A stretch of 64,000 bases of DNA from an uncultured bacterium (lineage in GTDB: Bacteria > RBG-13-61-14 > CAYWKU01), in NCBI GenBank assembly GCA_964459325.1, contig CAYWKU010000007.1, positions 83,422 to 147,421 on the forward strand, given 5' to 3'. The position numbers and the translations under genes were made by a program. A model generated the notes under the pieces. That model was not told where the DNA came from, did not search any database, and saw only the letters and a program-made list of their open reading frames with translations. This document shows, piece by piece, positions 480 through 58,717 of this stretch. Every line of letters starts with the position of its first letter. Position 1 is the first letter of the stretch.

Positions 480-995
480 ATGTTCTGGACAGGATTGATT
501 GTCGGAATAGTCGGCTCCTGGCTGGTCAGGGAGCTCTTTCTCGGGTATATCGCGCCTCCCACCGGCTTCAAGCGCCTGGGCAGGAAAGGCTATGCGGTAG
601 TCCGTGCGATAGGCGAAGCGTTGCTACCGGAAGGGGGGGACATTCCTTATTCTGCGGAGCAGGCCGATGTACCTCAGTTCGTGGACAACTACCTCGACGG
701 CGTGCCCACCCTCACCCGCCGGCTGATACACATGCTCTTCTTTCTTATGGAACACGCCACCTACATATTCGCCTTCACCACCCGCCGCCTTTCCGAGATG
801 GACGTGGACGCCCGGATACGCTACCTCGAGGGATGGGAAAACAGCCGCCTTTACGCGCGCAGGTTGGCCTTTACCAGCCTCCGGGCCATATACGGCATGG
901 CCTACCTGGCCCACCCGGATGTCGAGAAGGCCATGGGGATAGATATAAACCGCAGGTGCCGAGAAGCGCTTGTCGTTGAAAGGAAGCGCGCATGA
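480..995 (+). CDS. Small membrane-anchored protein, gluconate 2-dehydrogenase subunit 3-like; probable partner subunit of the downstream GMC oxidoreductase
   Basis: ORF 393..995; preferred ATG at 480 preceded by GGAGGG; N-terminal hydrophobic helix (FWTGLIVGIVGSWLV); stop overlaps the downstream start (ATGA at 992-995). Family assignment is from overall resemblance only. Confidence 0.5.
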   Translation: MFWTGLIVGIVGSWLVRELFLGYIAPPTGFKRLGRKGYAVVRAIGEALLPEGGDIPYSAEQADVPQFVDNYLDGVPTLTRRLIHMLFFLMEHATYIFAFTTRRLSEMDVDARIRYLEGWENSRLYARRLAFTSLRAIYGMAYLAHPDVEKAMGIDINRRCREALVVERKRA

Positions 996-2536
996 ATACC
1001 GAATCGCCCAATCCCCACGAGCACGTAAAAAGGTTCCGTGATTATGACCGGGATATGAAAGACAGTTGCGATTTCCTTATCGTCGGCTCCGGTCCCGCCG
1101 GCTCGGTGGCGGTTAAAGAGCTTTCGGAAGCGGGATACGACGTGGTGTTGCTGGAGGAAGGTCATCCCGTGGGGCCGGAGGATTTCGTCAGGGAAGGCTC
1201 CCGCTCCATGATGAGGCTGATGAAGGAAGCCGGCGTGCGCTCCACCCTGGGAAACATCGCCATGCCCACTATGCAGGCGATTTGCCTGGGAGGCGGTTCC
1301 CTCATCAACAGCGCCATTTGCATACGGGCGCCCGAGTTCGTGTTCGAAAGATGGCGCAAAGAATGCGGCATCGAATGGGCGAGCCGGGCCGAGCTGGACC
1401 CTCACTACGATAAAATCGCGGAATACTGGGGAGTTCAGCCCACCCCGGAAGACGTGCAGGGCCGCCGCAATCTCCTGTTCAAAGAAGCATGCGACAACCT
1501 GGGCATCGAAAGCCACCCCAACGACCGGAACGTGCAGGGGTGCAAGGCTTGCGCCGAATGCTTCACCGGTTGCCCCACCCGCGCCAAAAAGAGCACCGAC
1601 GTGGTGTTCATACCCGACGCCATACGCAACGGCGCCCGCGTCTATGCCAACATGCGGGCGGAAAAGCTGATAATAGAAGGTAACCGCGTGGCCGGAATAC
1701 ATGCCCGCGCGGCGGATAACTGGACAAAGCGCACCGGCCACTCGCTCGAAGTGCGTGCCAAATGCACCATCCTCGCCGCCGGGGTCGTTGGAACTCCCAC
1801 GTTGTTGCAGAAAAACGGCAATGCCGCCAACTCCTCCGGTTGGGTGGGCAAAAACCTCGTATTCCATCCCGGCGGGGCTATTATGGGAATTTTCGACGAG
1901 GAGGTCAACCCGTGGGACGGGGCGACTCAGGGGTACTCCTCCATCGAGTACCTCGAGCAGGGCTTCAAGCTGGAATCGTTGTGGGCGCCGCCGGCGGTGC
2001 TGGCCGTCAGGTTTCCCGACTTCGGCTATGACTTCAAATCCCACATAGCCAAGTACAAGCACATGGCGCCCTGGGTGGCGGTGATAAGCGGGCAGTCGCA
2101 GGGCCAGGTGCGCGCCCGAAAGAGAGGCTGGGACCCGCTGCTCAAATATAACCAGAGCCAGGAGGATGCTAATAGAATCAGGGAAGGCCTGTCCAAGGTG
2201 GCGCAGCTTTTCGAAGCCGCCGGGGCTCATTCGATGCTGCCCGGAGTGCACGGGCTGCCCACCGTCATGAAAACCGAAGGCGCTCCGAAAAAGATACTGG
2301 AAACAAAGTTGAAGCCGGCGGACATGGTCAGCGCCGCCAGCCACGTCTTCGGCACTACCAAAATGGGCGCCGACCCATCGAACAGCGTGGTGGACCCTTC
2401 GGGTAAAACTCACGACCTCGACGACCTGTACATAGTGGACACCGGCATCATGCCCATCTGCACCAGCGTTAACCCCATGTTCACCATCATGGCCATAAGC
2501 GATAAGATATGCCGGGGACTCAGGGAAAGATATTAA
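992..2536 (+). CDS. GMC-family FAD-dependent oxidoreductase (choline dehydrogenase-like)
   Basis: N-terminal Rossmann FAD motif DFLIVGSGPAGSVAVKELSEAGYDVVLLEEG; C-terminal GMC signature region (HVFGTTKMGADPSNSVVDPSGKTHDLDDLYIVDTGIMP); 514 aa. Confidence 0.85.
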   Translation: MNTESPNPHEHVKRFRDYDRDMKDSCDFLIVGSGPAGSVAVKELSEAGYDVVLLEEGHPVGPEDFVREGSRSMMRLMKEAGVRSTLGNIAMPTMQAICLGGGSLINSAICIRAPEFVFERWRKECGIEWASRAELDPHYDKIAEYWGVQPTPEDVQGRRNLLFKEACDNLGIESHPNDRNVQGCKACAECFTGCPTRAKKSTDVVFIPDAIRNGARVYANMRAEKLIIEGNRVAGIHARAADNWTKRTGHSLEVRAKCTILAAGVVGTPTLLQKNGNAANSSGWVGKNLVFHPGGAIMGIFDEEVNPWDGATQGYSSIEYLEQGFKLESLWAPPAVLAVRFPDFGYDFKSHIAKYKHMAPWVAVISGQSQGQVRARKRGWDPLLKYNQSQEDANRIREGLSKVAQLFEAAGAHSMLPGVHGLPTVMKTEGAPKKILETKLKPADMVSAASHVFGTTKMGADPSNSVVDPSGKTHDLDDLYIVDTGIMPICTSVNPMFTIMAISDKICRGLRERY

Positions 2537-2545
2537 ACTGTTAGT

Positions 2546-2619
2546 GGGAGCGACCTCCCGGCCTCGCCCGTAAGGCTACAGCCGGGGTCGCGACCTTCTT
2601 AATCGAGACCACAGGTCTC
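2546..2619. repeat. Dispersed hairpin repeat family, locus 1 (intergenic, after the GMC oxidoreductase gene)
   Basis: GGGAG-cgac-CTCCC hairpin, CCCGTAAGGCTACAGCCGGGGTCGCGACC (reverse complement of 21681-21707), GAGACC-aca-GGTCTC palindrome. Confidence 0.6.
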
Positions 2620-2854
2620 TCCAACTTTATAAGAGGGGCAACCACTGAACCGGGTTCATCAACGAGTTCGCCTCTACCCTTGCCCAAAAAGTTAAATTGT
2701 TTTAGTATTTTATACTTCGCGATAAATCAGGGTTATACTGTTGAGAATCGAAAAGAGGTGGATTTCCGGAAGACAAGGGGCTTAAGCCCCTTGTCCGGCG
2801 CACTCAAAAACTGTGTTGAATCAAAAACTATAATTAAAACAAGGAGTGGCAATA

Positions 2855-4894
2855 ATGGAATTGGCGCAAAGAATTCTGGTTTTCCTCATGTTGGTGGGCA
2901 GTGTGGTTTACTTTTTCTATCGTCTCTGGAAGCTGGAACTCAGGCTTGTTCTGCAGGGAGACAAGGAAAAGCGAACCGACAATATCGGAACGAGGATAAT
3001 ATCCCTGATTCGTGACGTTATTCTCCAGCGCAAGCTTTTCTTCAGACCCTACTCGCTGTCCGGCACCCTTCACGCTTTCGTCTTCTGGGGATTTCTGATT
3101 ATCGGCATACAAACACTTAACTTTCTTATCGAAAGCGTCGCCGGTTTCAACGTGGTGGCTCACACGCTCCCGCAGCTCAACGTCCTCTTCGACATAATGA
3201 CCGCGCTGGTTATCGTCTCGGTAATTTACTTCATCTACAACCGGCTGGTTAACAAGCCGCTGCGGCTGGAGCTGAGCAGCGACGCCCTGATAATCCTCGT
3301 CTTCATCGGCCTTTTGATGGTTACCGACGTCCTCATGGACGGCGCCGCTTACGCCTTGGGAACCACGGAACACGCCTGGACGACCGACCTGGCTTTCTTC
3401 GGAGGCGCAATCCGCGGCCTGCTTTCCGGGGTCGGCGATACCGGCAATTACGTGATATGGGCGGTAAACAAATGGGTGCACCTGGGCATTTTCTTGAGCT
3501 TCCTTATCTATCTTCCTTTCTCCAAGCACGGCCACCTCATGTTCGCGCCGTTCAACGGCTTCTTCCAGGAGCTTACCCCCAAGGGCCGGCTCCGCCCCAT
3601 CGAAAACATGGAAGAGATAATGGAATCGGACAACCCCACCTTCGGCAAGCACAAAATCGAAGAGTTCTCCTGGAAGCAGCTCCTGGACCTGTTTAGTTGC
3701 TCCGAATGCGGCCGCTGCAGCGACAATTGCCCCGCCCAGATAACCGGCAAGAAGCTGAGCCCCAAGTACCTGATGATAGACATGAAGCACCACCTCCAGG
3801 AGGTGGGTTACGTGGCCGACGGAAGCGGCGGCTCGGACGAAGAGGGCCTGACCAACTCCGACGGCAGCCGGCGCAAGGACCTGATTACCGAAGTCGTGGA
3901 CACCGACGTCATCTGGGCCTGCACAACATGCCGCGCGTGCCAGGAGTTCTGCCCGGTGCTCAACGAGCACATCATGGACATCGTAGACATGCGCCGCTAC
4001 AAGGTGCTCATGGAAGGCGACTTCCCCGCCGAAGCCCAGACGGCCCTGCGAAACATGGAAAACAACTCCAACCCGTGGGGCGTCGGATACAGCGAGCGGG
4101 CCAACTGGGGCCAGGACCTCGACATCCCCATCATGGGCGAGCTGGAAAACCCGCAGGAGGTGGAGTACCTGTTCTTCGCAGGCTGCGCCGCATCGTTCGA
4201 CGACGCCAACAAGAAAATCGCCCGGGCGGTGGTGAAACTGCTCAAGCGCGCGGGCGTCAGTTTCGCATACCTGGGCGTCGAGGAGCAGTGCTGCTTCGAA
4301 ACCGCGCGGCGTATCGGGAACGAGTACCTGTTCCAGGAAATGGCCAAGGCCAACATCGAGCTGTTCCAGAGCTACGGTGTGAAGAAGATAATCACCGCCT
4401 GCCCGCACGGTTATAACACCCTCAAGAACGAATATCCCCAGTTCGGCGGAAACTTCGAAGTATACCACCACACCGAAATACTGGACGACCTTATCAGGAA
4501 GGGGAAACTCAAACCCACCGAGCCGGTCAACGAGACCGTCACCATCCACGACTCCTGCTACCTGGGCCGTCACAACGACGTCTACGAGCAGCCGCGCAAT
4601 ATCCTGAAATCCATCCCCGGCTTGAAGCTGGTGGAAATGGACCGCAATCACCGGCGAAGCCTCTGCTGCGGCGCGGGCGGCGGGCGCATGTGGATGGAGG
4701 AGCACGAGGGGGTCAGGATTAACAATGTGCGTACCGAAGCCGCCCTGAACACCGGCGCATCGTGCGTGGCCACCGCGTGCCCCTACTGCGTGGCAATGTT
4801 CGACGAGGGGATAAAGAACTTCGAGAAGGAAGAAACATTCAAGCTCAACGACGTAGCGGAACTGCTGGAAAAAAGCCTCAAGCCCGAAGAATAA
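2855..4894 (+). CDS. Membrane-bound Fe-S oxidoreductase: polytopic N-terminal membrane domain fused to an HdrD/GlpC/DsrK-like domain with two ferredoxin-type 4Fe-4S motifs and two CCG-type cysteine-rich motifs
   Basis: ATG at 2855 with AAGGAG 8 nt upstream (ORF track begins at GTG 2846). Several hydrophobic helices in the first ~230 aa; CSECGRCSDNCP and CTTCRACQEFCP motifs; cysteine-rich motifs EEQCCFETARR and LCCGAGGG...ACPYC. Confidence 0.8.
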   Translation: MELAQRILVFLMLVGSVVYFFYRLWKLELRLVLQGDKEKRTDNIGTRIISLIRDVILQRKLFFRPYSLSGTLHAFVFWGFLIIGIQTLNFLIESVAGFNVVAHTLPQLNVLFDIMTALVIVSVIYFIYNRLVNKPLRLELSSDALIILVFIGLLMVTDVLMDGAAYALGTTEHAWTTDLAFFGGAIRGLLSGVGDTGNYVIWAVNKWVHLGIFLSFLIYLPFSKHGHLMFAPFNGFFQELTPKGRLRPIENMEEIMESDNPTFGKHKIEEFSWKQLLDLFSCSECGRCSDNCPAQITGKKLSPKYLMIDMKHHLQEVGYVADGSGGSDEEGLTNSDGSRRKDLITEVVDTDVIWACTTCRACQEFCPVLNEHIMDIVDMRRYKVLMEGDFPAEAQTALRNMENNSNPWGVGYSERANWGQDLDIPIMGELENPQEVEYLFFAGCAASFDDANKKIARAVVKLLKRAGVSFAYLGVEEQCCFETARRIGNEYLFQEMAKANIELFQSYGVKKIITACPHGYNTLKNEYPQFGGNFEVYHHTEILDDLIRKGKLKPTEPVNETVTIHDSCYLGRHNDVYEQPRNILKSIPGLKLVEMDRNHRRSLCCGAGGGRMWMEEHEGVRINNVRTEAALNTGASCVATACPYCVAMFDEGIKNFEKEETFKLNDVAELLEKSLKPEE

Positions 4895-4921
4895 TCCTTA
4901 AATTACAGCCGATTGAATCAA

Positions 4922-4951
4922 GGCCCGGTTCCCAATGAGCCGGGCTTTTTT
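4922..4951 (+). terminator. Rho-independent terminator candidate after the Fe-S oxidoreductase gene
   Basis: GGCCCGG-ttcccaatga-CCGGGC hairpin followed directly by TTTTTT, about 30 nt past the stop at 4894. Confidence 0.6.
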
Positions 4952-4960
4952 ACATGTGCG

Positions 4961-5088
4961 CCCGGCAGGGGCATGCCCCCGGACTTACTTCCGGGGTTTC
5001 CATAATGGTAGGCCCGACACTCCTGTCGGGCACACTCAAAGGCCACCGTGGAATGGGCGGCAAGAGTGCCGCCCCTACCGTGCCCGGG
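4961..5088. repeat. Dispersed hairpin repeat family, locus 2 (between the Fe-S oxidoreductase and acyl-CoA dehydrogenase genes)
   Basis: GGTAGGCCCGACACTCCTGTCGGG (5003-5031) and GGCAAGAGTGCCGCCCCTACC (5057-5082) are opposite-orientation copies of the unit seen at 21765-21826; GGGGCATGCCCC palindrome at ~4968. Confidence 0.6.
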
Positions 5089-5247
5089 AGTACGGAGTGC
5101 GGACAACCCCATCGTTATATGTCGGCCTGTCTGTAAGGACAACAAGAAACCTTGCCTTTCCCTTTCCCCCGCATCCCCTTGCGCCGCCCGTGCGATAAGC
5201 CTATACTGGACTTTCCTGAAAAATTAAATTTTCGATGGAGAGGGAAA

Positions 5248-6387
5248 ATGGAGTTTAGCGACGAGCTTAAGATGGTTCGCGACGAAACCCGCAAGTTCGT
5301 TGACCGGGAGATTATACCGAGGGAGATGGAAATCGAGGAGGCGGACGCGGTGCCGCCGGACATCGTAAGCAAGCTGAGGGAGCTTGGCTACTTCGGCATC
5401 AAAACCCCGCCCGAATACGGCGGCCTGGGGCTGGGACTGACCGGATACTGCGTGGTGCAGGAACAGCTCGGGCGAACTCACCCCGCCGTAAACCTCATCA
5501 TCAGCGGCAACAACTCAATAGGCGCAATGGGTATACTAAACGACGGCTCCGACGAGCAGAAGCGCCGCTACCTGCCGAAACTGGCCTCCGGCGAATGGAT
5601 AGCCGCCCTGGCGCTTACCGAACCCGGCGCCGGGAGCGACGCCGCCTCCATCAAAACAAGAGCCGAAAAGAAGGGCGACAAGTGGGTAATCAACGGCGCC
5701 AAGCACTTCATCACCCGCGCGGACATCGCCGACGTGTTCACGGTAATGGCGGTTACCGACAAGGAGAAAGGCCCGAAGGGCGGCATCACCGCGTTTGTGG
5801 TGGAAAAGGGAACGCCGGGCTTCGGCATCTCCAAGCCGCAACACAGCATGGGGTCGGATACGGTGCGCCAGTGCGAAGTTTATTTCGACGATTGCGAAGT
5901 TCCCGAAGAAAATGTTATCGGCGAAGTGGGGTTCGGGTTTCGCGTGGTGATGAAAGTGCTGGAGGATGGCCGCATCGGCCAGGCCGCGCGGGCGCTGGGC
6001 GCCATGAGAAGGCTGCTCGATTTGAGCACCGACTGGGCGAAGCAGAGGGTGCAGTTCGGCAAACCAATCTCCGAACGGCAGGCCATCCAGTGGATGCTGG
6101 CCGACATTGCCCGTGACATCTACGCTTCCGAGTGCATGGTCTACGACGCCGCCGGGCGAAAGGACGAAGGCGAGAGACTCCCGAAGCAGGCGGCGATAGC
6201 GAAGCTGTTCGCCAGCGAAGCCGCATTTCGCGCGGCCGACAACGCTTTGCAGATTCACGGCGGCACCGGCTACATGAAGGATTCGCCGGTGGAGTTTTTC
6301 TTCCGGGAGCTGAGGCTGCTCAGGATTATCGAGGGCACCAGCGAAATACAGCGGATGGTCATATCCCGGGAAGTTCTGAAAGAGTAA
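5248..6387 (+). CDS. Acyl-CoA dehydrogenase
   Basis: ATG at 5248 after a GGAGAGGG purine-rich stretch; typical ACAD sequence throughout (ALALTEPGAGSDAASIKTRAEKKGDKWVINGAKHFITRA, QIHGGTGYMKDSPVEFFFRELRLLRIIEGTSEIQRMVISREVL). Confidence 0.9.
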   Translation: MEFSDELKMVRDETRKFVDREIIPREMEIEEADAVPPDIVSKLRELGYFGIKTPPEYGGLGLGLTGYCVVQEQLGRTHPAVNLIISGNNSIGAMGILNDGSDEQKRRYLPKLASGEWIAALALTEPGAGSDAASIKTRAEKKGDKWVINGAKHFITRADIADVFTVMAVTDKEKGPKGGITAFVVEKGTPGFGISKPQHSMGSDTVRQCEVYFDDCEVPEENVIGEVGFGFRVVMKVLEDGRIGQAARALGAMRRLLDLSTDWAKQRVQFGKPISERQAIQWMLADIARDIYASECMVYDAAGRKDEGERLPKQAAIAKLFASEAAFRAADNALQIHGGTGYMKDSPVEFFFRELRLLRIIEGTSEIQRMVISREVLKE

Positions 6388-8949: not shown

Positions 8950-9123
8950 ATTCCTTGCCTACAACCTCCCCACTCTTTAGGCTAATCATTTTATCCTGTA
9001 TTTTCAATGAAATTCCACAAAGTTGAGGAATATTCTACAGTCTTACTACAGCTTGTGTTGACATCCATCGGCCATCGATTACCCTAACCGCGACTTAACA
9101 AATCCGGCAGGGAGAGATTCATA

Positions 9124-10536: not shown

Positions 10537-10862
10537 GGTACCCCACCTTGCACGCAGTGCGAGGTGGGTAGCGAAGCTACAGGGAAATGTGGTATGAAGG
10601 ATTGCGGATTATCAATCGAGCAGTCTGCTATTTAATGAAGAGGGGAAAGGCGCCGGGGTATCGGTTTCGAAGCCGTCAATATTCCCTGCCCGTCCGGGCC
10701 CACCTGGAACCTTCGGGTCAAGGTGGGGTACCCGGTATCCCCGGGTTAAAACCCGGGGCTTAAAGATAAATGTGAAACTCCCCGGCTTAAAAGCCGGGGT
10801 TTCCGAGGGGTGAGCAAAATTGATAGCCCACACAACTTGCTTGTGTGGGTGAGCGAAGCTCA
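10537..10862. repeat. Cluster of stable stem-loops in a convergent intergenic spacer, including two copies of a hairpin-plus-GCGAAGC mini-hairpin unit and three GC-stem/TTAAAA-loop hairpins
   Basis: Unit 1 at 10537-10580 (ccaccttgcacgcagtgcgaggtgg + gtagcGAAgctac); unit 2 at 10827-10862 (cccacacaaCTTGCttgtgtggg + tgagcGAAgctca); between them ccccgggTTAAAAcccgggg and ccccggcTTAAAAgccgggg. Confidence 0.6.
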
Positions 10863-11040: not shown

Positions 11041-11139
11041 TGTAGAATTCGAGGGTCGATTTTCTACAACATTTTCTACAGAATTGTAGAATATTCTACA
11101 ACGTTGTAGGATATTCTACAGGTGACAATTTTCGTCACC
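11041..11139. promoter_or_regulatory. Array of TTCTACA-containing palindromes (operator- or iteron-like), including an 18-bp perfect palindrome
   Basis: At least seven TTCTACA/TGTAGAA half-sites within ~80 bp; perfect palindrome TTGTAGAATATTCTACAA (11084-11101), near-palindrome TTGTAGGATATTCTACAG (11104-11121), inverted repeat GGTGACaattttcGTCACC (11121-11139). A related GGAATATTCTACAG copy lies at 9026-9039 upstream of the GH1 gene. Confidence 0.5.
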
Positions 11140-12821: not shown

Positions 12822-13937
12822 TCAGTTAGACCGGAAATACACCGGAATTGCCGCCAGTCCGAAGATTACCGGCGCCGCCCATGCGGCTATCCACGGCGTG
12901 TCGATGGCTCCCCCCCGCCCCAGGCTCAGCGTCCAGGCATGCAGTTCATAATAGGTGAGGCAAATTACAAGGGCCAGGACGATACCGCCGGCCACGCCGA
13001 CGCCCCTGCCGCTTCGCAAGCCCAGCGGTATAACCAGAACGAGCAGTATGAAGCCGCTGAGGGGGTAGCTGGTTTTGGCCCACAAATCCACCCGGAAGGG
13101 CGCCATGTCGCTGCCGGTGGCTTCCAGTTTCCCGATGTAGGCCAGCAGGTCGAACACCCCCATCTTATCGGGTTCCTTGTCCATGATTTCAAAGTTTTCG
13201 GGAGTTTCGGGGATGGCGATGACTTCGTTTTCCCCGTGCCGGGTGGTCATTTCGCTCCCTTCCGGGAATGAGCGGACGAGTAATCGCGAGGCCACCCATT
13301 TGTCGCCTTTCCATCTCACATCCTCGGCTTCCATGCGGCGGTTTACGCGGAAACCTTCTCCCGTTTCGTATAAGATAAGCCCTTCCATCCGTTGCTCGTT
13401 GATGACGTATTTCTTGACCCGGTAAATTCCGTTCGCTCCGCGATACCATCCGGCGGTGACGTTCAAAAAGGACTCGGTCGGCTCCTCGCCTTTAATGGCG
13501 GCTTTCTGCAATAGTTTGTACCGCTTAATCTTATCCCGTACAACTTCCTGTTGAGTGTTGCTGGCGGGGAGGAGTTGTTCCCCCATGATGAAAAGCAGGG
13601 CAGCTATCAGCAGGGAAAACAGAAAGACGGGCCGGAAAATCGCCCTGACCGGAAAACCCGCAGCCCGGACGGCAATCAGCTCCCTGCGGCGGTTCATTAT
13701 CCCCAGAGTTATCAGAGCCGCCAGCGGCAGGGTAAGCGGCATGATGTCGTACAAAATCCGGGGCAGCTTGTAAACCAGGTAAAGCAGCATCAGCTCGATG
13801 GGCGCGCCGCCTTCTCCCACGTAGCGCTGCACCCTGTCCAGGAAATCCACCATGAGAAATATGGCGGTAACGCCGACTATGCAGGCGGCGAATATACCCA
13901 GAAATTCGCGCAGCACCAGTCTTCGGAGGATTCTCAT
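12822..13937 (-). CDS. lptG: LPS export ABC transporter permease, LptG-like (YjgP/YjgQ family)
   Basis: YjgP/YjgQ-type topology and sequence (LREFLGIFAACIVGVTAIFLMVDFLDR); overlaps the upstream paralogue by 4 nt; second gene of an lptFG-like pair. Confidence 0.7.
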   Translation of the reverse strand: MRILRRLVLREFLGIFAACIVGVTAIFLMVDFLDRVQRYVGEGGAPIELMLLYLVYKLPRILYDIMPLTLPLAALITLGIMNRRRELIAVRAAGFPVRAIFRPVFLFSLLIAALLFIMGEQLLPASNTQQEVVRDKIKRYKLLQKAAIKGEEPTESFLNVTAGWYRGANGIYRVKKYVINEQRMEGLILYETGEGFRVNRRMEAEDVRWKGDKWVASRLLVRSFPEGSEMTTRHGENEVIAIPETPENFEIMDKEPDKMGVFDLLAYIGKLEATGSDMAPFRVDLWAKTSYPLSGFILLVLVIPLGLRSGRGVGVAGGIVLALVICLTYYELHAWTLSLGRGGAIDTPWIAAWAAPVIFGLAAIPVYFRSN

Positions 13938-18838: not shown

Positions 18839-19615
18839 ATGTCTCCGCGATTCGTCGACCTGGCGATAGCCATAGAGAGCGACCTGCCGTCCGACCCGCC
18901 GAACATGATTCCGAAGATAAACTACATCGACCACAAGACCGGCGCCGAGCAGATGAAGATGTTCTTCCCGGGCGCAACCGACGACGACCTGCCCGGAGGC
19001 CTGGGATGGGCGGTGGAGGAAGTGACGCTGGCCACGCATTCCGGAAGTCACCTCGACGCCCCGTATCACTACCACCCCACGATGAACAACGGCGAGCGGA
19101 GCTGGACGATAGACGAAGTGCCGCTCGAATGGTGCATGGGCCCGGGGGTAAAGTTGGACTTCCGCGACAAACCCGACGGCCACAAGGTCACCGCCGAAGA
19201 GATGGAAAAGGCTCTGAACGACATAAATCATCCGCTCAACGAAGGCGACATCGTGCTGGTAAACACCGGCGCCGACAAGTACTGGGGAAAGCAGGAATAC
19301 CTGGTGAGAGGTTGCGGCATGGGCCGGGAGGCGACGCTGTGGCTGGCCGAGCGCGGGGTGAGGGTCGTCGGCACCGACGCCTGGAGCTGGGACAGGCCGT
19401 TGCCACTGATATCCAAGGAGTTCCAGGAAACCGGCGATTCCTCGATTATATGGGAAGGCCATTTCGCGGGCATCGAGAAGGCTTATTGTCACATAGAAAA
19501 GCTGACCAACCTCGACCAGTTGCCGCCGGACGGGTTCACTTTCTGCTGTTTCCCGGTAAAAATAAAGGGCGCCAGCGCGGGGTGGATTAGGCCGGTGGCC
19601 ATTATCTGGGAGTAA
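18839..19615 (+). CDS. Cyclase-family protein (kynurenine formamidase-like metal hydrolase)
   Basis: ATG at 18839 with AAGGAGGG upstream; HxGxHxDxPxH motif (THSGSHLDAPYHY) characteristic of the cyclase/arylformamidase family. Confidence 0.75.
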   Translation: MSPRFVDLAIAIESDLPSDPPNMIPKINYIDHKTGAEQMKMFFPGATDDDLPGGLGWAVEEVTLATHSGSHLDAPYHYHPTMNNGERSWTIDEVPLEWCMGPGVKLDFRDKPDGHKVTAEEMEKALNDINHPLNEGDIVLVNTGADKYWGKQEYLVRGCGMGREATLWLAERGVRVVGTDAWSWDRPLPLISKEFQETGDSSIIWEGHFAGIEKAYCHIEKLTNLDQLPPDGFTFCCFPVKIKGASAGWIRPVAIIWE

Positions 19616-19644
19616 ATAACGAACCATGTAAGTGAGGTGGAAGG

Positions 19645-20685
19645 ATGGAATTTATATCAAGGGAGCTTTTTTCCAGGTTTCGCCATCCGCAGAAAAACTT
19701 CGAGGAGATAGAAATCAGCGCCGAGGTGCGATGGGACCCGCTTACCGGTAGGGCGGGGCGAATTACGGCTCACAAGTCGGTCATGTTCCCCGCCGAAAAG
19801 GAGCAGCCCGACATATCGGAAGGCGTTGAGGCAAGCCGAAAGTTTTGCGTCTTCTGCTCCCCCAACGTTGACAACATGACGCCGAAACTTCCCGAGCAGA
19901 TTTTCGCGGAGGAAAAGCTCGAGTACAGGGGCACGATATTGTTCCCGAACATCTTTCCTTACGGCGCAGGCAGCGCCGTTCTTATCTACGGACGTGACCG
20001 CCATTACATCCCGGTGGGCGAGTTCGGTGTCGAGCTTCAGGTGGCGGCGCTTACCAACTGCCGGGAGTACATTTCCCGGTATCAGAAATTTAACCCGGCG
20101 ATGGTGCACTCGAGCATATCCCAGAATTACCTCCCGGCCAGCGGGGGCAGTCTTGTGCACCCTCACCTTCAGGTGCAGGTCGACGAGTTCCCGCCGCAGC
20201 ACCAACTGGACCTGGTGGAAAGCGCCCGCCGCTATTCACTGAAGACCGGCTCCAACTACTGGCAGGACCTGCTGTGGGAGGAAGAACAGAGGCAGGTGCG
20301 ATGGTTGGGGCGCATCGGCGAATGGGGCTGGTTCACCCCGTTTGCTCCGTGGGGCTTCAAGGAAGTGGCGGCGGCGCTGCCCGGCAAGAAGTGCGTCACC
20401 GAATGCTCGGAAAAGGAGTTGACCGAGTTGGCCGAAGGCATTGAAAACGTGCAGAGGTACTACCGCGCCGCCGGGGTGAACTCATTCAATTTCACCATAT
20501 ACTCCACCTCCACCGGCGAGGAGTCGTGGTCGCTCTTCTTCCGCATGATTTGCCGCGCAAGCTGGGAATCCTGGTACCGCAACGACCGGACCTTCCACGA
20601 AGTAATGCTCGGGGAGGCTGCGGTGTTCGAGCCTCCCGAGCGCGTGGCCGAGCAGGCTCGGCCTTACTTCGCGGGAGAGAAGTAA
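19645..20685 (+). CDS. GalT-like HIT-superfamily nucleotidyltransferase (galactose-1-phosphate uridylyltransferase family)
   Basis: N-terminal Cys pair (FCVFCSP) and HPH-x-Q active-site-like motif (SGGSLVHPHLQVQV); assignment by motif only. Confidence 0.5.
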   Translation: MEFISRELFSRFRHPQKNFEEIEISAEVRWDPLTGRAGRITAHKSVMFPAEKEQPDISEGVEASRKFCVFCSPNVDNMTPKLPEQIFAEEKLEYRGTILFPNIFPYGAGSAVLIYGRDRHYIPVGEFGVELQVAALTNCREYISRYQKFNPAMVHSSISQNYLPASGGSLVHPHLQVQVDEFPPQHQLDLVESARRYSLKTGSNYWQDLLWEEEQRQVRWLGRIGEWGWFTPFAPWGFKEVAAALPGKKCVTECSEKELTELAEGIENVQRYYRAAGVNSFNFTIYSTSTGEESWSLFFRMICRASWESWYRNDRTFHEVMLGEAAVFEPPERVAEQARPYFAGEK

Positions 20686-20712
20686 GCCCACTTCCCCCGT
20701 TTTAAAGCCGTT

Positions 20713-21555
20713 TTATTTGTTTCTGCCCAGCGTCTGCACCAGCGGTATGCCGTTGGTGCCGGCGGGTATGTATACCGTGGTGTGGTTCGGCGATTTGGCC
20801 ATGTCGAGTTGCGCCTGTATGGCCTCGTGCTGGAGATACAGCTCGCTCAGAGTCTCGTTGATAATACGCTGTGACTTGGCTATACCTTCGGCCTCAACGA
20901 CCCTTTTCTCGGCCTGTTTTCTCTCGATTTTAATCTCGATGTCCGTCTTTTCCAGTTCCTGGGTGGCGGCCATTTTTTCGCTGACGGCCTGGGTTACGTT
21001 CTTGGGATACTGGATGTTTCCTACCACCACCGACTCGAAAACGAAAGGCGTCCCCTCGTACTTCTCCCGGAGTCTGGCCAGGATATCGTCGCCGATTTTG
21101 GCGATGTTGTTTTTAATTTCCAGCGACTCGTACTTCTGGATTTCGTCCCGAACGGTTGTCCTGAAGACCTCTTTAACGGATTGCGAATACCACTGCTCGC
21201 CCATCCATTTTTCTACAACTCTTTTGGAGCCGTCTTCCTCGATGTGGCAGATAAGGTGGGCCTGAAACTCGATGCGCAGGTTGTCCTTGGCCAGCACCGA
21301 AGATTCGTTCATGAAGGGCTCGGTGTAAGTCCGCGTCCTCATGTCGATAATTTGTGCGAACTTCCGCCAGCTTATCCCAAGCTTTGCGGGGCCTTTGAGG
21401 GTGGTGACGTAGCCGCCCTGCCCGAAGTAATAGGGCCGGGAGTAGATGTAGCCCTCGTGCCCCGCGGGCACCTCGGGGTTGGTGATGCCCGTGCATCCCT
21501 GCAGCAGGGCAAAGCCCATTACCGCGACGATTGCGATGGTTAAAATGCGTCTCAT
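20713..21555 (-). CDS. SPFH/band-7 (prohibitin-like) domain lipoprotein
   Basis: Signal peptide with lipobox LLQGC; central region resembles SPFH domains with a C-terminal coiled-coil-like segment. Confidence 0.65.
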   Translation of the reverse strand: MRRILTIAIVAVMGFALLQGCTGITNPEVPAGHEGYIYSRPYYFGQGGYVTTLKGPAKLGISWRKFAQIIDMRTRTYTEPFMNESSVLAKDNLRIEFQAHLICHIEEDGSKRVVEKWMGEQWYSQSVKEVFRTTVRDEIQKYESLEIKNNIAKIGDDILARLREKYEGTPFVFESVVVGNIQYPKNVTQAVSEKMAATQELEKTDIEIKIERKQAEKRVVEAEGIAKSQRIINETLSELYLQHEAIQAQLDMAKSPNHTTVYIPAGTNGIPLVQTLGRNK

Positions 21556-21671
21556 GATTTCCTCCTTTCAGGAAACGGTTTAATCGGTTGTTGTTTGATT
21601 CTTTAAGATTTTACAAGCTTAGAGCATTAAAGGGTACCATGGTGTCGAAAAGCGCCCGATGCAAAGTACCT

Positions 21672-21826
21672 GATGGTAGGCGCGACCCCCGGCTGTAGCC
21701 TTACGGAGCCTGCCCGTCCGGGCGAAGCACTACTGTCGCGCACCCGCAGGCAGCTTCCGTGCTGCCCGGCAGGAGTGCCGGGCCTACCATCTTTATGCGC
21801 GGCAGGAGCGCCGGGCCTACCATTTT
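21672..21826. repeat. Dispersed hairpin repeat family, locus 3 (tandem copies of the CCCGGCAGGAGYGCCGGGCCTACCAT unit)
   Basis: 21765-21791 and 21798-21826 are tandem near-identical units with a CCCGGCA-GGAG-TGCCGGG hairpin; 21681-21707 is the reverse complement of 2567-2595; the same unit occurs at 5003-5031 and 5057-5082. Confidence 0.7.
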
Positions 21827-21858
21827 TCGACATCCTCGGAAAGCCCCCTGCTTACCTT

Positions 21859-24324
21859 TCATTTGTCCGAAAGCCTGAACACTCCGTCCCAGTCAGAGGG
21901 TGGTGGCTTTTCGAGGTAAAGCCGGCATCTTTCGAGGTAAGTGCGACTGGGACCGTCTTCCGGAATAAAGTTCAAAGCCGCTTCGAAACTGGAGATTGCG
22001 TCGCCCCAGTTCATCTTCCGGTAACTTACCACCCCGTCGTTGTAGGCTTTCAGCATCCGCACCCGCTTGCGGCTCAATGAACCTTTCCGGCCCATAAGCT
22101 CATATACCCTTACCGGCCGCTCCTTCCCCGCCACGGCCACCATGTCCAGGAATCTCACCTCGAAATGGTTTTTCACCTGCTTGTAGGTTTCGCGGGCAAT
22201 CATGATGTAGGTTCCGTACTGCTTGTTGGCGCCTTCGAGCCTGCTGGCCAGGTTCACCTCATCGCCCATGATGGTGTAGTTGAGCCTGCCCTCGCTGCCC
22301 ATGTTTCCCACCACCATGGGGCCGGTATTCAGCCCCATCCGGACGCGCATGTTCTTCACCAGGTCGGGCCGGTTACCTTCGCGTCGCCATTTTTCCCGAA
22401 GCGTACTCAGCGCCGCCTGCATCTCCAGGGCCGCGTTACATGCCCGGACGGCGTGGTCCTCAAAACTCAACGGCGCGCCCCAGAATGCCATGATAGCGTC
22501 CCCTTCGTACTTGTCGATGGTGCCGCCGTATTTTTCTATAACCCTGGCCATTGCCGAAAGGTACTCGTTCAATAACCCGACCAGCTGCCCTGCGTCGCCC
22601 AGCTTTTCGCTAATGGTGCTGAACTTTTCGATATCGCTGAAAAAGGCGGTAAGCTCCTTCTCCACTCCCCCGAGTTCCACCAGGGACGGGTCCTTGATAA
22701 TCTCATCCACCACGGTAGGCGCGAGATACTTGCCGAAAGTGTCCTTTATCCACGTCCTCTCGCGCTCGTGCAGTCTGGCCCTGTTGAACAGGCCGCCCGC
22801 ATAAAGGGCAACCACCGCCGACGCCGGAGCGGCTACGGGAATCCACAGACCGCCCCGAACGAAGCCTGCATACGAGCCGATTGCGACAGTCACCAGCAAC
22901 GCCGCCAGTATGGTTGCTCCCGCCGCCAGGGGCGGTCTCCAGAGCATGAATAAAATCATCGAAACCAGCCCCGCCAGAAAAACAATCCCTCCCTCGATAA
23001 TCTCCAGCCGCCATTTCCTTTGGCCGGGCATCTCAGCCATCTCGAGTAGGTCTTTGATTTTATTATCAAGAAACAGGGATAACGGAACGATAAAGTCCTT
23101 CGTGAGTATGGTGTCCAGGGTGTTGGCGTGAATTTCCAGTCCCGGAGTGTATCCCGTTTTTACGCCTTCCGCGGCGGTATCTTGGGAACTTATTTTCTGG
23201 CCGCCGAACGGGGTGGGGTATTCATCGTGGGCCAGTTGGTGAGTGTTTCCCACGAGCGCGATTTTGCCTTCTACTTTTTCGGGGTCGAAATCCCCCTTCA
23301 ATACGTCTCCAAAGGATATTCTCGGGTAAGTATCCCTCCCGCCGCGGTAGTTGATTAATATGTTTCCGTTTACGAGGGGAATTTTCAGCGCGTCCTCGTC
23401 TCCGCCCATTACAAGCTTCCAGTCGGTGCTTTGAATCAACTCTGGATGGGCCGGGTACCTGACCCTGATTGCGGTCTCCAGCGCCAGCGCTGCCCGCTTG
23501 TTCGGGTCTTCGGCCGAGCGCCCCACTATGGCGGGCATGCGCCTGACCCGAGCGTCCGGGTCTTCGATGATATTGACGGCGCCTTCGCCGAGGAGGGAGC
23601 CGAATCTCAACCCTTTAACGGCAACGTACAACTTCGTGCCCGCCGGTACGCCCTGCACGGTGAGCTCGAGGCTATCTTCATCCGCCGCCACGTCCACGTG
23701 ACCGCCCGAACCTTCTCTTACGGCGCCGGTGTCCTTGATGGGATTGAGTGAGTAAAATACCCGAAATCCGTTAATTACCCGACCGGGGCGCGGCTTCCAT
23801 CGGATGTCAGCCACGCCGTTTTCGTCCACCGTCACAATTTTTGAAGCGTCCACGACAGCCTCTTCGGTGACGCAGGGCACTTCGGTGTCCAGAAACATAT
23901 CCCTCGGCCGAACCCATCCGCCCATAGCGATGAAGCTGGAAAGTATCACATTCCCCGCGCAGGCTATTTCCCGGGCCAGTTTTTCATCTCCGGGCTTGGA
24001 AGTAGCGAAGTCCATGTCGAAAACCACCGCCATTGCGCCCGCTTCGTTGAGGGCTTCGAGAACCCGGGCGTGTTCGGCGCGGGTGATGGAGCCGATGGCC
24101 TTATCGAGGGTTTTGCGGGTGGATTCGTCTATGGTTACAAGCAGGACGTCCGAATGCGGAGCTTTTTGGCCCCGGATTAAAAAGCGCAGGTCGTAAGAAA
24201 GGCGCTCGAGGCCGTCGAAAGCGCCGGCGGCTTCCAGCGCGGTTATCGCCACAACGAGGGCAAGCCCCAGCCACAGGCCGGTCAGCCTGCCGGGAGGCTT
24301 CGAGGATTTTCCGGTATCAGCCAC
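21859..24324 (-). CDS. CHASE2 sensor domain-containing adenylate/guanylate cyclase (class III)
   Basis: N-terminal periplasmic CHASE2-like region, transmembrane helices, then cyclase catalytic domain (FFSDIEKFSTISEKL...YEGDAIMAFWGAP...RMGLNTGPMVVGNMGS...YTIMGDEVNLASRLE), C-terminal TPR-like tail. Confidence 0.8.
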   Translation of the reverse strand: MADTGKSSKPPGRLTGLWLGLALVVAITALEAAGAFDGLERLSYDLRFLIRGQKAPHSDVLLVTIDESTRKTLDKAIGSITRAEHARVLEALNEAGAMAVVFDMDFATSKPGDEKLAREIACAGNVILSSFIAMGGWVRPRDMFLDTEVPCVTEEAVVDASKIVTVDENGVADIRWKPRPGRVINGFRVFYSLNPIKDTGAVREGSGGHVDVAADEDSLELTVQGVPAGTKLYVAVKGLRFGSLLGEGAVNIIEDPDARVRRMPAIVGRSAEDPNKRAALALETAIRVRYPAHPELIQSTDWKLVMGGDEDALKIPLVNGNILINYRGGRDTYPRISFGDVLKGDFDPEKVEGKIALVGNTHQLAHDEYPTPFGGQKISSQDTAAEGVKTGYTPGLEIHANTLDTILTKDFIVPLSLFLDNKIKDLLEMAEMPGQRKWRLEIIEGGIVFLAGLVSMILFMLWRPPLAAGATILAALLVTVAIGSYAGFVRGGLWIPVAAPASAVVALYAGGLFNRARLHERERTWIKDTFGKYLAPTVVDEIIKDPSLVELGGVEKELTAFFSDIEKFSTISEKLGDAGQLVGLLNEYLSAMARVIEKYGGTIDKYEGDAIMAFWGAPLSFEDHAVRACNAALEMQAALSTLREKWRREGNRPDLVKNMRVRMGLNTGPMVVGNMGSEGRLNYTIMGDEVNLASRLEGANKQYGTYIMIARETYKQVKNHFEVRFLDMVAVAGKERPVRVYELMGRKGSLSRKRVRMLKAYNDGVVSYRKMNWGDAISSFEAALNFIPEDGPSRTYLERCRLYLEKPPPSDWDGVFRLSDK

Positions 24325-58668: not shown

Positions 58669-58717
58669 ACAAGGGGCTTCAGCCCCTTGAATTTCAAGGG
58701 GTTAAAACCCCTTGTCT
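58669..58717. terminator. Tandem GC-stem hairpins between convergent genes (candidate bidirectional terminator; member of the GGGG-TTAAAA-CCCC hairpin family)
   Basis: GACAAGGGGC-ttca-GCCCCTTG followed by CAAGGGG-ttaaaa-CCCCTTGTC; further hairpins and T-runs up to ~58870. Confidence 0.5.

Follow-up and report, generated by a model that had tools for sequence, protein, structure and literature searches.

The window, a 64-kb stretch of DNA from an uncultured bacterium, carries short tagged hairpins that we read, with a probability of about 0.75, as copies of a GTAG-tagged REP family, that is, as short, non-coding and non-autonomous repeats that settled as lineage-specific insertions. The family is an addition to the GTAG REP super-family with REPIN-like behaviour, and by analogy with known systems its copies would be mobilised by a RAYT. 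A REP-like family of dispersed hairpins had been proposed in the initial annotation, and this proposal holds on several counts: the units combine a GTAG tag with a GC-rich palindrome, they are extragenic, they form inverted and tandem dimers, many copies exist elsewhere and none is found at the orthologous sites of relatives.

Anatomy and arrangement of the units

The canonical unit is 24 nt long and four copies of it lie within the window. Read tag first, it consists of (AT)GGTAG and an 8-bp GC-rich stem closing a 4-nt loop, CTCC or CTCT. In its full hexamer form this becomes (AT)GGTAGG, a 7-nt arm, CTCC or CTCT and the complementary arm; the last G of GGTAGG pairs with the base after the stem, and the unpaired tag is thus GGTAG. 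The form first described, CCCGGCA-GGAG-TGCCGGG-CCTACC, is the reverse complement of the tag-first unit. The copies are given below with their scores under R1, a covariance model built from 105 foreign units from which the window sequences were left out:

5004-5033, plus strand: REP unit A1, AATGGTAGG-CCCGACA-CTCC-TGTCGGG-CAC, perfect 8-bp stem (R1 46.9 bits, E=2.7e-9; exact pattern match)
5053-5082, minus strand: REP unit A2, CACGGTAGG-GGCGGCA-CTCT-TGCCGCC-CAT (R1 42.4 bits, E=3.3e-8; pattern match)
5005-5082: inverted doublet A1+A2, GTAG tags outermost, spacer of about 22 nt
21762-21791, minus strand: REP unit B2, GATGGTAGG-CCCGGCA-CTCC-TGCCGGG-CAG (R1 43.5 bits, E=1.8e-8)
21795-21824, minus strand: REP unit B3, a degraded head-to-tail duplicate of B2 (R1 27.7 bits, E=1.2e-4)
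10686-10707, minus strand: possible decayed relic, CCAGGTGGG-CCCG-GA-CGGG-CAG (R1 16.4 bits, E=0.06)

The R1 coordinates bear out both the tandem unit that had been noted near 21765-21826 and the units in both orientations near 5003-5031 and 5057-5082. The accompanying claim of three or more loci stands in part: the canonical unit is present at 5.0 kb and at 21.7 kb, while the third locus, at 2.57 kb, is linked to these by a second shared segment alone.

At 5.0 kb, the differences between the stems of A2 and A1 are compensatory changes. As single-stranded DNA the doublet folds at -22.4 kcal/mol (z=-4.57), as good a fold being reached by 0 of 200 shuffles; it is an HH heterodimer in the terms of Di Nocera, and REPIN-like. 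The tandem pair at 21.7 kb has a period of 33 nt and an identity of 91% (21763-21794 against 21796-21827), the stem of B3 containing one mismatch and one G-T pair. Together with the pairing of B2 with a further unit, B1, described below, the window thus holds an HH doublet (5005-5082), an HT pair (21762-21824) and an outward-tagged doublet (B1+B2); the spacers of the two doublets are similar in length (about 22-24 nt) and clearly different in sequence. A repeat finder recovered the copies as one direct family plus inverted pairs of 86-93% complementarity.

These units stand well above the background of the window. The pattern GGTAGGSSCGNCNNNCNNGNCGSS has 5 matches in it against 0.51 expected, a count reached by none of 100 shuffles; four of the five are the units, and the fifth, at 12987-13010 with 2 mismatches, is probably due to chance. 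The hexamer GGTAGG occurs 28 times and is followed by a hairpin in only 5 cases, all of them intergenic and 4 of them preceded by AT. With R1, the four units are recovered at E values from 2.7e-9 to 1.2e-4 and the next match, at E=0.06, is the sequence at 10686-10707, in which the tag reads GGTGGG and the hairpin centre is deleted; whether this is a deleted relic of a unit is uncertain, although it may be one. The window holds 4-5 units in 64 kb; GTAG REPs have stems of 6-13 bp with a small loop and typically number more than 100 in one genome.

A split hairpin and the second shared segment

A fifth tag, ATGGTAGG, overlooked in the initial annotation, is found at 21673-21680 on the plus strand, exactly where the second shared segment begins. 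Two long-loop structures are associated with this segment:

21673-21741, plus strand: REP-like unit B1, ATGGTAGG-CGCGAC-[42-nt structured segment CCCCGGCTGTAGCCTTACGGAGCCTGCCCGTCCGGGCGAAGC]-ACTACT-GTCGCG
2552-2598, minus strand: second long-loop copy, AGAAGG-TCGCGAC-CCCGG-CTGTAGCCTTACGGGCGAGG-CCGGG-AG-GTCGC, with the degenerate tag AGAAGG

Without the 42 nt, B1 is a canonical unit, GGTAGG-CGCGACA-CTAC-TGTCGCG. Its orientation is opposite to that of B2 and B3, and with B2 it makes up an outward-tagged doublet (21673-21790). The arms GATGGTAGGCGCG and CGGGCCTACCATC are 92% complementary, and the stretch 21673-21792 folds at -33.6 kcal/mol (z=-3.24). R1 detects the tag half of B1 alone (21672-21685, E=6.8), and CGCGAC-type stems also occur as doublet partners in the metagenome-assembled genome (MAG) B31T1B5. 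From this anatomy we infer that B1 is probably a REP.

The 42-nt segment contains the second shared segment and forms an inner stem, CCCGG/CCGGG. That this segment recurs reverse-complemented near 2567-2595 had been claimed before and is confirmed: its core is an exact 20-mer, CCCCGGCTGTAGCCTTACGG, at 21687-21706 on the plus strand and 2568-2587 on the minus strand (2 matches in the window against 0.00 expected), extending to about 27 nt with one indel. The copy at 2552-2598 folds at -14.5 kcal/mol (z=-2.19) and has the outer stem (GCGAC/GTCGC), the inner stem and the start of the loop in common with B1, which suggests that in both the same REP occurs as a variant with a long loop, similar to the structured long loops known from some GTAG families (PMC3733652). 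The two known copies of the second segment both lie inside the window: none was found in 445 kb of loci around foreign REPs, and four matches from a metagenome scan were dismissed as chance, their flanks being unrelated. On a lesser reading, the 42-nt segment in B1 may be a second small element that inserts into REP hairpins.

Gene context

Every copy in the window is intergenic, between Pfam-supported genes that run in one direction, and lies downstream of the upstream gene. The genes concerned are:

992-2536, plus strand: GMC oxidoreductase gene (Pfam)
2846-4894, plus strand: Fe-S/CCG-domain oxidoreductase gene (Pfam)
5152-6387, plus strand: acyl-CoA dehydrogenase gene (Pfam)
20713-21555, minus strand: SPFH/Band-7 protein gene (Band_7)
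21859-24324, minus strand: CHASE2 adenylate/guanylate cyclase gene (Pfam)

The long-loop copy at 2552-2598 begins 16 nt 3' of the GMC oxidoreductase gene. The doublet 5005-5082 lies 110 nt 3' of the Fe-S/CCG gene, past this gene's own hairpin+T6 terminator (4921-4950). B3 starts 35 nt past the cyclase stop codon, B3 and B2 together spanning 35-97 nt past it in sense orientation relative to the cyclase gene; after the units, the cyclase sense strand reads CATAAAGA and CAGCACGG. No unit coincides with a called terminator-like site and no T-run stands behind the hairpins, which argues against the terminator role that had been suggested for them. A search of the entire window against Rfam 15 at gathering score was negative, as was one of the three intergenic regions at E<=1, and the window contains no tRNA. 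Short ORFs that cross the 21.7-kb cluster (21627-21833 and 21673-22080) were dismissed as non-coding, since relatives lack this region. The cluster is enclosed by a 9-nt perfect inverted repeat, TGTCGAAAA/TTTTCGACA, at 21643-21651 and 21824-21832; with about 0.2 such repeats expected by chance in 305 nt, this one may be fortuitous or may be what is left of a bigger composite element.

Conservation of the hairpin structure

Across genomes, the hairpin structure is under selection: the stem varies while it stays paired. In a set of 73 units chosen by a pattern that does not require complementarity at three free stem pairs, 70-71 units have Watson-Crick pairs at these positions and both pair types occur, a result equalled by 0 of 2000 shuffles. 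CG<->GC and AT<->GC exchanges occur in the stem, and the tag and the loop are nearly invariant. Similarly, 98.7% of cells are paired in the alignment of the 105 foreign units, against 25-50% when the partner column is slid, and covariation is also seen at the outermost pair, which played no part in the choice of the sequences (GC 87, AU 6, CG 5). A fixed tag and loop on a freely covarying stem fit the recognition pattern of TnpA_REP.

The family in other genomes

A scan of a genome collection (one genome per species) with the pattern GGTAGGSSCGRCRCTCYTGYCGSS returned at least 63 loci, most of them in about ten MAGs of uncultured bacteria among the matches listed, and each of these MAGs has several contigs matched. 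They include AABM5.125.24 (labelled Calditrichaeota), SMAG_U14251, E44_bin39 (Planctomycetota), B31T1B5 (Armatimonadota), SRP098346_co1_397, binchicken_co334_234, WY2.bin26 and three Nitrospinota MAGs; none of the listed loci comes from the window's own genome. With a 7-bp stem and a CTCY loop, 148 hairpins were collected from the listed loci and the window, 86 of which have the exact GGTAGG tag and about 30 a near one-letter variant (GGTGGG, GGTAGA or AGTAGG).

Outside the window the usual form is the inverted doublet with its tags outside, and the 37 HH doublets mostly measure 53-61 nt. In AABM5.125.24 the whole doublet, spacer included, is repeated at four loci (L007, L019, L024 and L047), near-identical doublets are likewise found at several loci of E44_bin39, and the loci of SMAG_U14251 hold about 35 units in 78 kb, which is a lower bound. 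In one of these (L015, 4639-5961, plus strand) a long restriction/methylase-like ORF reads into REP units, so that its C-terminus contains their translation, ...GRPDTPVGP...; here, REPs may have truncated or extended a gene.

The half-site GGTAGG-CCCGACA-CTCY-TGTCGGG is near letter-identical in MAGs labelled Calditrichota/AABM5-125-24, Planctomycetota, Armatimonadota and Nitrospinota, and equally in several bacteria that carry no classification and on a single contig of the viral collection IMG/VR, while the doublet partner is lineage-specific. This distribution does not come from one organism mis-binned many times, since in the sampled loci the proteins common to the MAGs are at most about 50% identical, GC content ranges from 52% to 63% and the doublet partner unit differs from MAG to MAG. 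A viral origin of the family was rejected, the pattern being present on 1 contig of 2.9 million in the viral collection (IMG/VR). This contig (IMGVR_UViG_3300044799_000400), which may be a phage or a host fragment, carries at least 6 units with the loop variant GTAGGCCCGACAATCCTGTCGGGC in 2 kb (318-2249), three of them in a 69-nt x 3 tandem array (1364-1569). The unit sequence GGTAGG-CCCGACA-CTCY-TGTCGGG had no match in the literature searched, nor in the supplementary files of PMC3733652.

Orthologous sites in relatives

In one relative, found in four JGI samples, SPFH is 89% identical and gene order is kept over 20 kb, yet the 154-nt REP cluster between cyclase and SPFH is missing: the spacer measures 101 nt, against 303 nt in the window. 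In a more distant relative (SPFH 75%, cyclase 62% identical) the two genes are also adjacent, with a REP-free spacer of 91 nt. With two outgroups lacking the cluster, a gain in the window's lineage is the simplest reading, and the comparison thus identifies the 21.7-kb cluster as an apparent insertion. Its boundaries are not definable, as the relatives' spacers can be aligned only in the ~45 nt that immediately precede the start codon of SPFH.

The other two loci could be compared with a relative whose Fe-S protein is 92% identical. Its GMC-to-Fe-S spacer has 183 nt, against 309 nt in the window, and contains no long-loop copy; the Fe-S gene has kept its terminator, and no doublet was found within the 225 nt covered downstream of the CCG gene. 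In the loci of the relatives, which add up to about 80 kb once redundancy is removed, R1 found no REP unit. A 75%-identical Fe-S homologue is encoded on CAZDAF010000047.1, a contig of binchicken_co334_234, and since other contigs of this MAG carry the family, it is present in the wider lineage, but patchy.

Some contigs end at these very sites. A Logan contig of run SRR7048220 is 100% identical to window positions 19275-21704 and ends inside the second segment, and the JGI contigs of the 92%-identical relative (L077/L078) end 225 nt past the Fe-S gene, by the site of the window doublet. These ends fit repeat-induced assembly breaks, which they do not prove.

Transposase candidates and target-site duplications

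Searches of all window ORFs with phmmer/hmmsearch, and of ten small ORFs with Pfam, found no Y1_Tnp ORF in the window. The queries, an approximate YafM sequence and the Y1 domain of L038 (one of the 63 loci), were run against the ORFs of the window and of the 63 loci. Within 445 kb around foreign REPs there is one Y1_Tnp, at L038 (4411-5361, minus strand; Pfam E=3e-15), which scores 79.7 bits against NCBIfam REP_Tyr_transpos, where the cut-off is 80. Proteins of this type are Y1_Tnp of about 315 aa with an HTH-like C-terminal tail, and they are multi-copy, with paralogues (L083-L090) in SMAG_U14251 and related metagenome contigs. L038 and three paralogue contexts each have hairpin inverted repeats of their own at their flanks, such as GGTGCCTGGCACCAACTTAA / TTAAGTTGGTGCCAGGCACC, which are unrelated to the REP units, and no GGTAGG units were found to flank L038 and its paralogues. 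With several copies and with these flanks, L038 does not look like the partner RAYT; the set is a multi-copy family of TIR-flanked tyrosine transposases in a REP-rich genome, resembling those described by Di Nocera et al. Genes between nearby REP groups were also considered and set aside as ordinary: those at L008, L015 and L054 are radical-SAM, restriction/methylase-like and YkgJ-like, respectively.

Direct repeats that abut the doublets, of which 33 were compared, do not exceed 4 nt, and their length distribution equals that of the shuffled control. The MITE-like character also proposed in the initial annotation thus finds no backing in target-site duplications beyond chance; their absence fits single-strand HUH transposition and speaks against a DDE-type MITE.

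Other repeats in the window

Two further repeats were noticed in the window. A perfect palindrome unrelated to the REP units, CAAGGGGCTTAAGCCCCTTG, occurs at 2774-2793, 58670-58689 and 58695-58714 (3 matches against 0 expected), the last two copies being adjacent at 58.7 kb, and also in binchicken_co334_234 (L039, 3385-3404). Its copy at 2774 folds with z=-5.2 and lies inside a stretch of about 60 nt that is missing from the spacer of the 92%-identical relative. This is likely a second family of small mobile palindromes. An AT-rich repeat, ATTCTACAnnGTTGTAGAATATTCTACA, is present in three copies and both orientations at 9012-9040 and 11073-11121, in two long intergenic regions; these copies look like operator sites for a regulator.

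Alternative explanations

Could the units be relics, REPs without a matching transposase in the source genome that are decaying and kept by drift or host use? Several observations point in this direction: B3 is degraded, the hairpin of B1 is split, the tag at 2552-2598 is degenerate, a possible deleted relic lies at 10686-10707, and no RAYT was found in the window or beside the foreign copies; moreover, REPINs are stated by Bertels & Rainey to decay once their RAYT is lost (bioRxiv 10.1101/2021.07.10.451892). Nevertheless, three units retain an intact tag and a perfect hairpin, a relative with 89-92% identical proteins lacks the cluster, which argues for a fairly recent gain, and the absence of a RAYT within 64 kb of genome says little. 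We therefore regard a relic population as unlikely. Host-selected structural elements, hairpins that are kept for ending or stabilising transcripts or for binding a conserved host protein, seem less probable still, despite the fact that selection of this kind would explain an identical tag and loop in very different bacteria (both are nearly invariant across MAGs with protein identities of at most about 50% in the sampled loci) and that each copy in the window is found 3' of a gene, B3 and B2 in sense orientation 35-97 nt past the cyclase stop. The hairpins have neither a T-run nor a terminator-like call nor an Rfam match; a separate hairpin+T6 terminator, conserved in the relative, precedes the 5.0-kb doublet, no hairpin is present at the corresponding sites of close or more distant relatives, and the units occur in both orientations and in tandem.

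A classical MITE would descend by deletion from a DDE-type insertion sequence and would show both terminal inverted repeats and target-site duplications. The inverted doublets superficially look like short terminal inverted repeats and the 9-nt TGTCGAAAA/TTTTCGACA brackets the cluster, but the repeating unit, a tagged hairpin of 24 nt, is also found alone, chance would yield about 0.2 perfect inverted repeats of 9 nt in 305 nt anyway, and the longest direct repeat at 33 doublets, 4 nt, matches the shuffled control; this origin is very improbable. We give almost no credence to a chance likeness of GC-rich intergenic hairpins: the window does have 56-59% GC, and short GC-rich hairpins are common, but the 5 matches to GGTAGGSSCGNCNNNCNNGNCGSS against 0.51, the E values down to 3e-9 from a model built on foreign sequences, and the 20-mer found twice against 0.00 are not what coincidence would produce.

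Proposed mechanism and implications

Our preferred reading, a mobile GTAG-tagged REP family, would involve a mechanism modelled on the E. coli, Stenotrophomonas and Marinomonas systems. The tag-bearing strand would fold as single-stranded DNA, and a RAYT/TnpA_REP-type Y1 HUH transposase, whose gene would lie elsewhere in the genome, would recognise the hairpin and the GTAG guide, cut beside the hairpin and copy the element into other extragenic single-stranded DNA without target-site duplication. In the three biochemically studied systems, TnpA_REP/RAYT binds the folded GTAG-bearing strand and not its complement, cleavage takes place at a CT or CA dinucleotide by the hairpin, and with short perfect-palindrome REPs the enzyme depends on the GTAG, on the stem and on certain bases of the loop (PMC8266576). 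A candidate RAYT of the present family would similarly be predicted to bind and cut single-stranded GGTAGGCCCGACACTCCTGTCGGGCA strand-specifically, with a need for the GTAG tag and the CTCC loop. Three intergenic insertions would have arisen in this way: the doublet behind the Fe-S gene terminator, the three-unit cluster between cyclase and SPFH, and the long-loop variant behind the GMC gene. Any effect on the host would be secondary, for example a putative stable 3' hairpin on the cyclase transcript or an uncoupling of cyclase and SPFH expression.

For the annotation of the genome, the REP copies explain three oversized intergenic regions; that they also account for the short-read assembly breaks at these sites fits the contig ends and is unproven. 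The cluster parts the cyclase from SPFH, genes that are about 91-101 nt apart in relatives, which could alter their coupling. More broadly, a REP family is added from uncultured sediment and groundwater lineages, in which REPs have hardly been catalogued.

Comparison with known systems

The units are closest in form to the GTAG super-family (PMC3733652) and to group 3 of S. maltophilia (PMC8266576), in which a GTAG abuts a 6-9-bp GC-rich perfect stem with a short conserved loop; the palindromes of group 3 are short and perfect, one example having an 8-bp stem and a 3-nt loop (PMC8266576). GTAG-tagged REPs form HH, TT and HT dimers and are extragenic (PMC3733652), and the super-family also has sub-families with complementary stems, HH heterodimers, HT tandems, larger groups and a location mostly downstream of genes, as seen here. 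Unlike in that super-family, the hosts are uncultured lineages rather than Proteobacteria and no flanked RAYT gene was found.

The E. coli REP/BIME elements with TnpA_REP (YafM) are similar in their GTAGG-CC... start, their alternating clusters and their intercistronic or 3'-UTR positions. In such positions, the E. coli REPs protect upstream mRNA. They are, however, about 35 nt long and imperfect, with a bulge that is needed for recognition (PMC8266576), whereas the units described here are perfect 24-nt hairpins. The subterminal hairpins of IS200/IS605 elements likewise combine a hairpin with a 5' tetranucleotide guide and leave no target-site duplication. These hairpins are recognised as single-stranded DNA by a Y1 HUH enzyme. 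In contrast to IS200/IS605, no transposase gene lies between the hairpins of the present elements, which are non-coding and 24-78 nt long.

The likeness to the REPINs of Pseudomonas fluorescens SBW25 (Bertels & Rainey 2011, PMC3116915) is that two inverted REPs and a spacer make up one long hairpin and that the whole doublet, including its spacer, recurs as a unit in other genomes of the family. The single-copy, REPIN-flanked RAYT that defines a REPIN system was not found near the copies searched, and two features differ from REPINs: the spacers of the window doublets are not the same, and the same half-site is present in very different MAGs. If the labels of these MAGs are right, it is conceivable, though we hold this tentatively, that a REP/REPIN family spreads horizontally with its transposase or is kept constant by an unusually conserved recognition protein. 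[quoted passage not shown] The half-site common to such divergent genomes thus provides a concrete test of whether REP/RAYT systems cross lineages.
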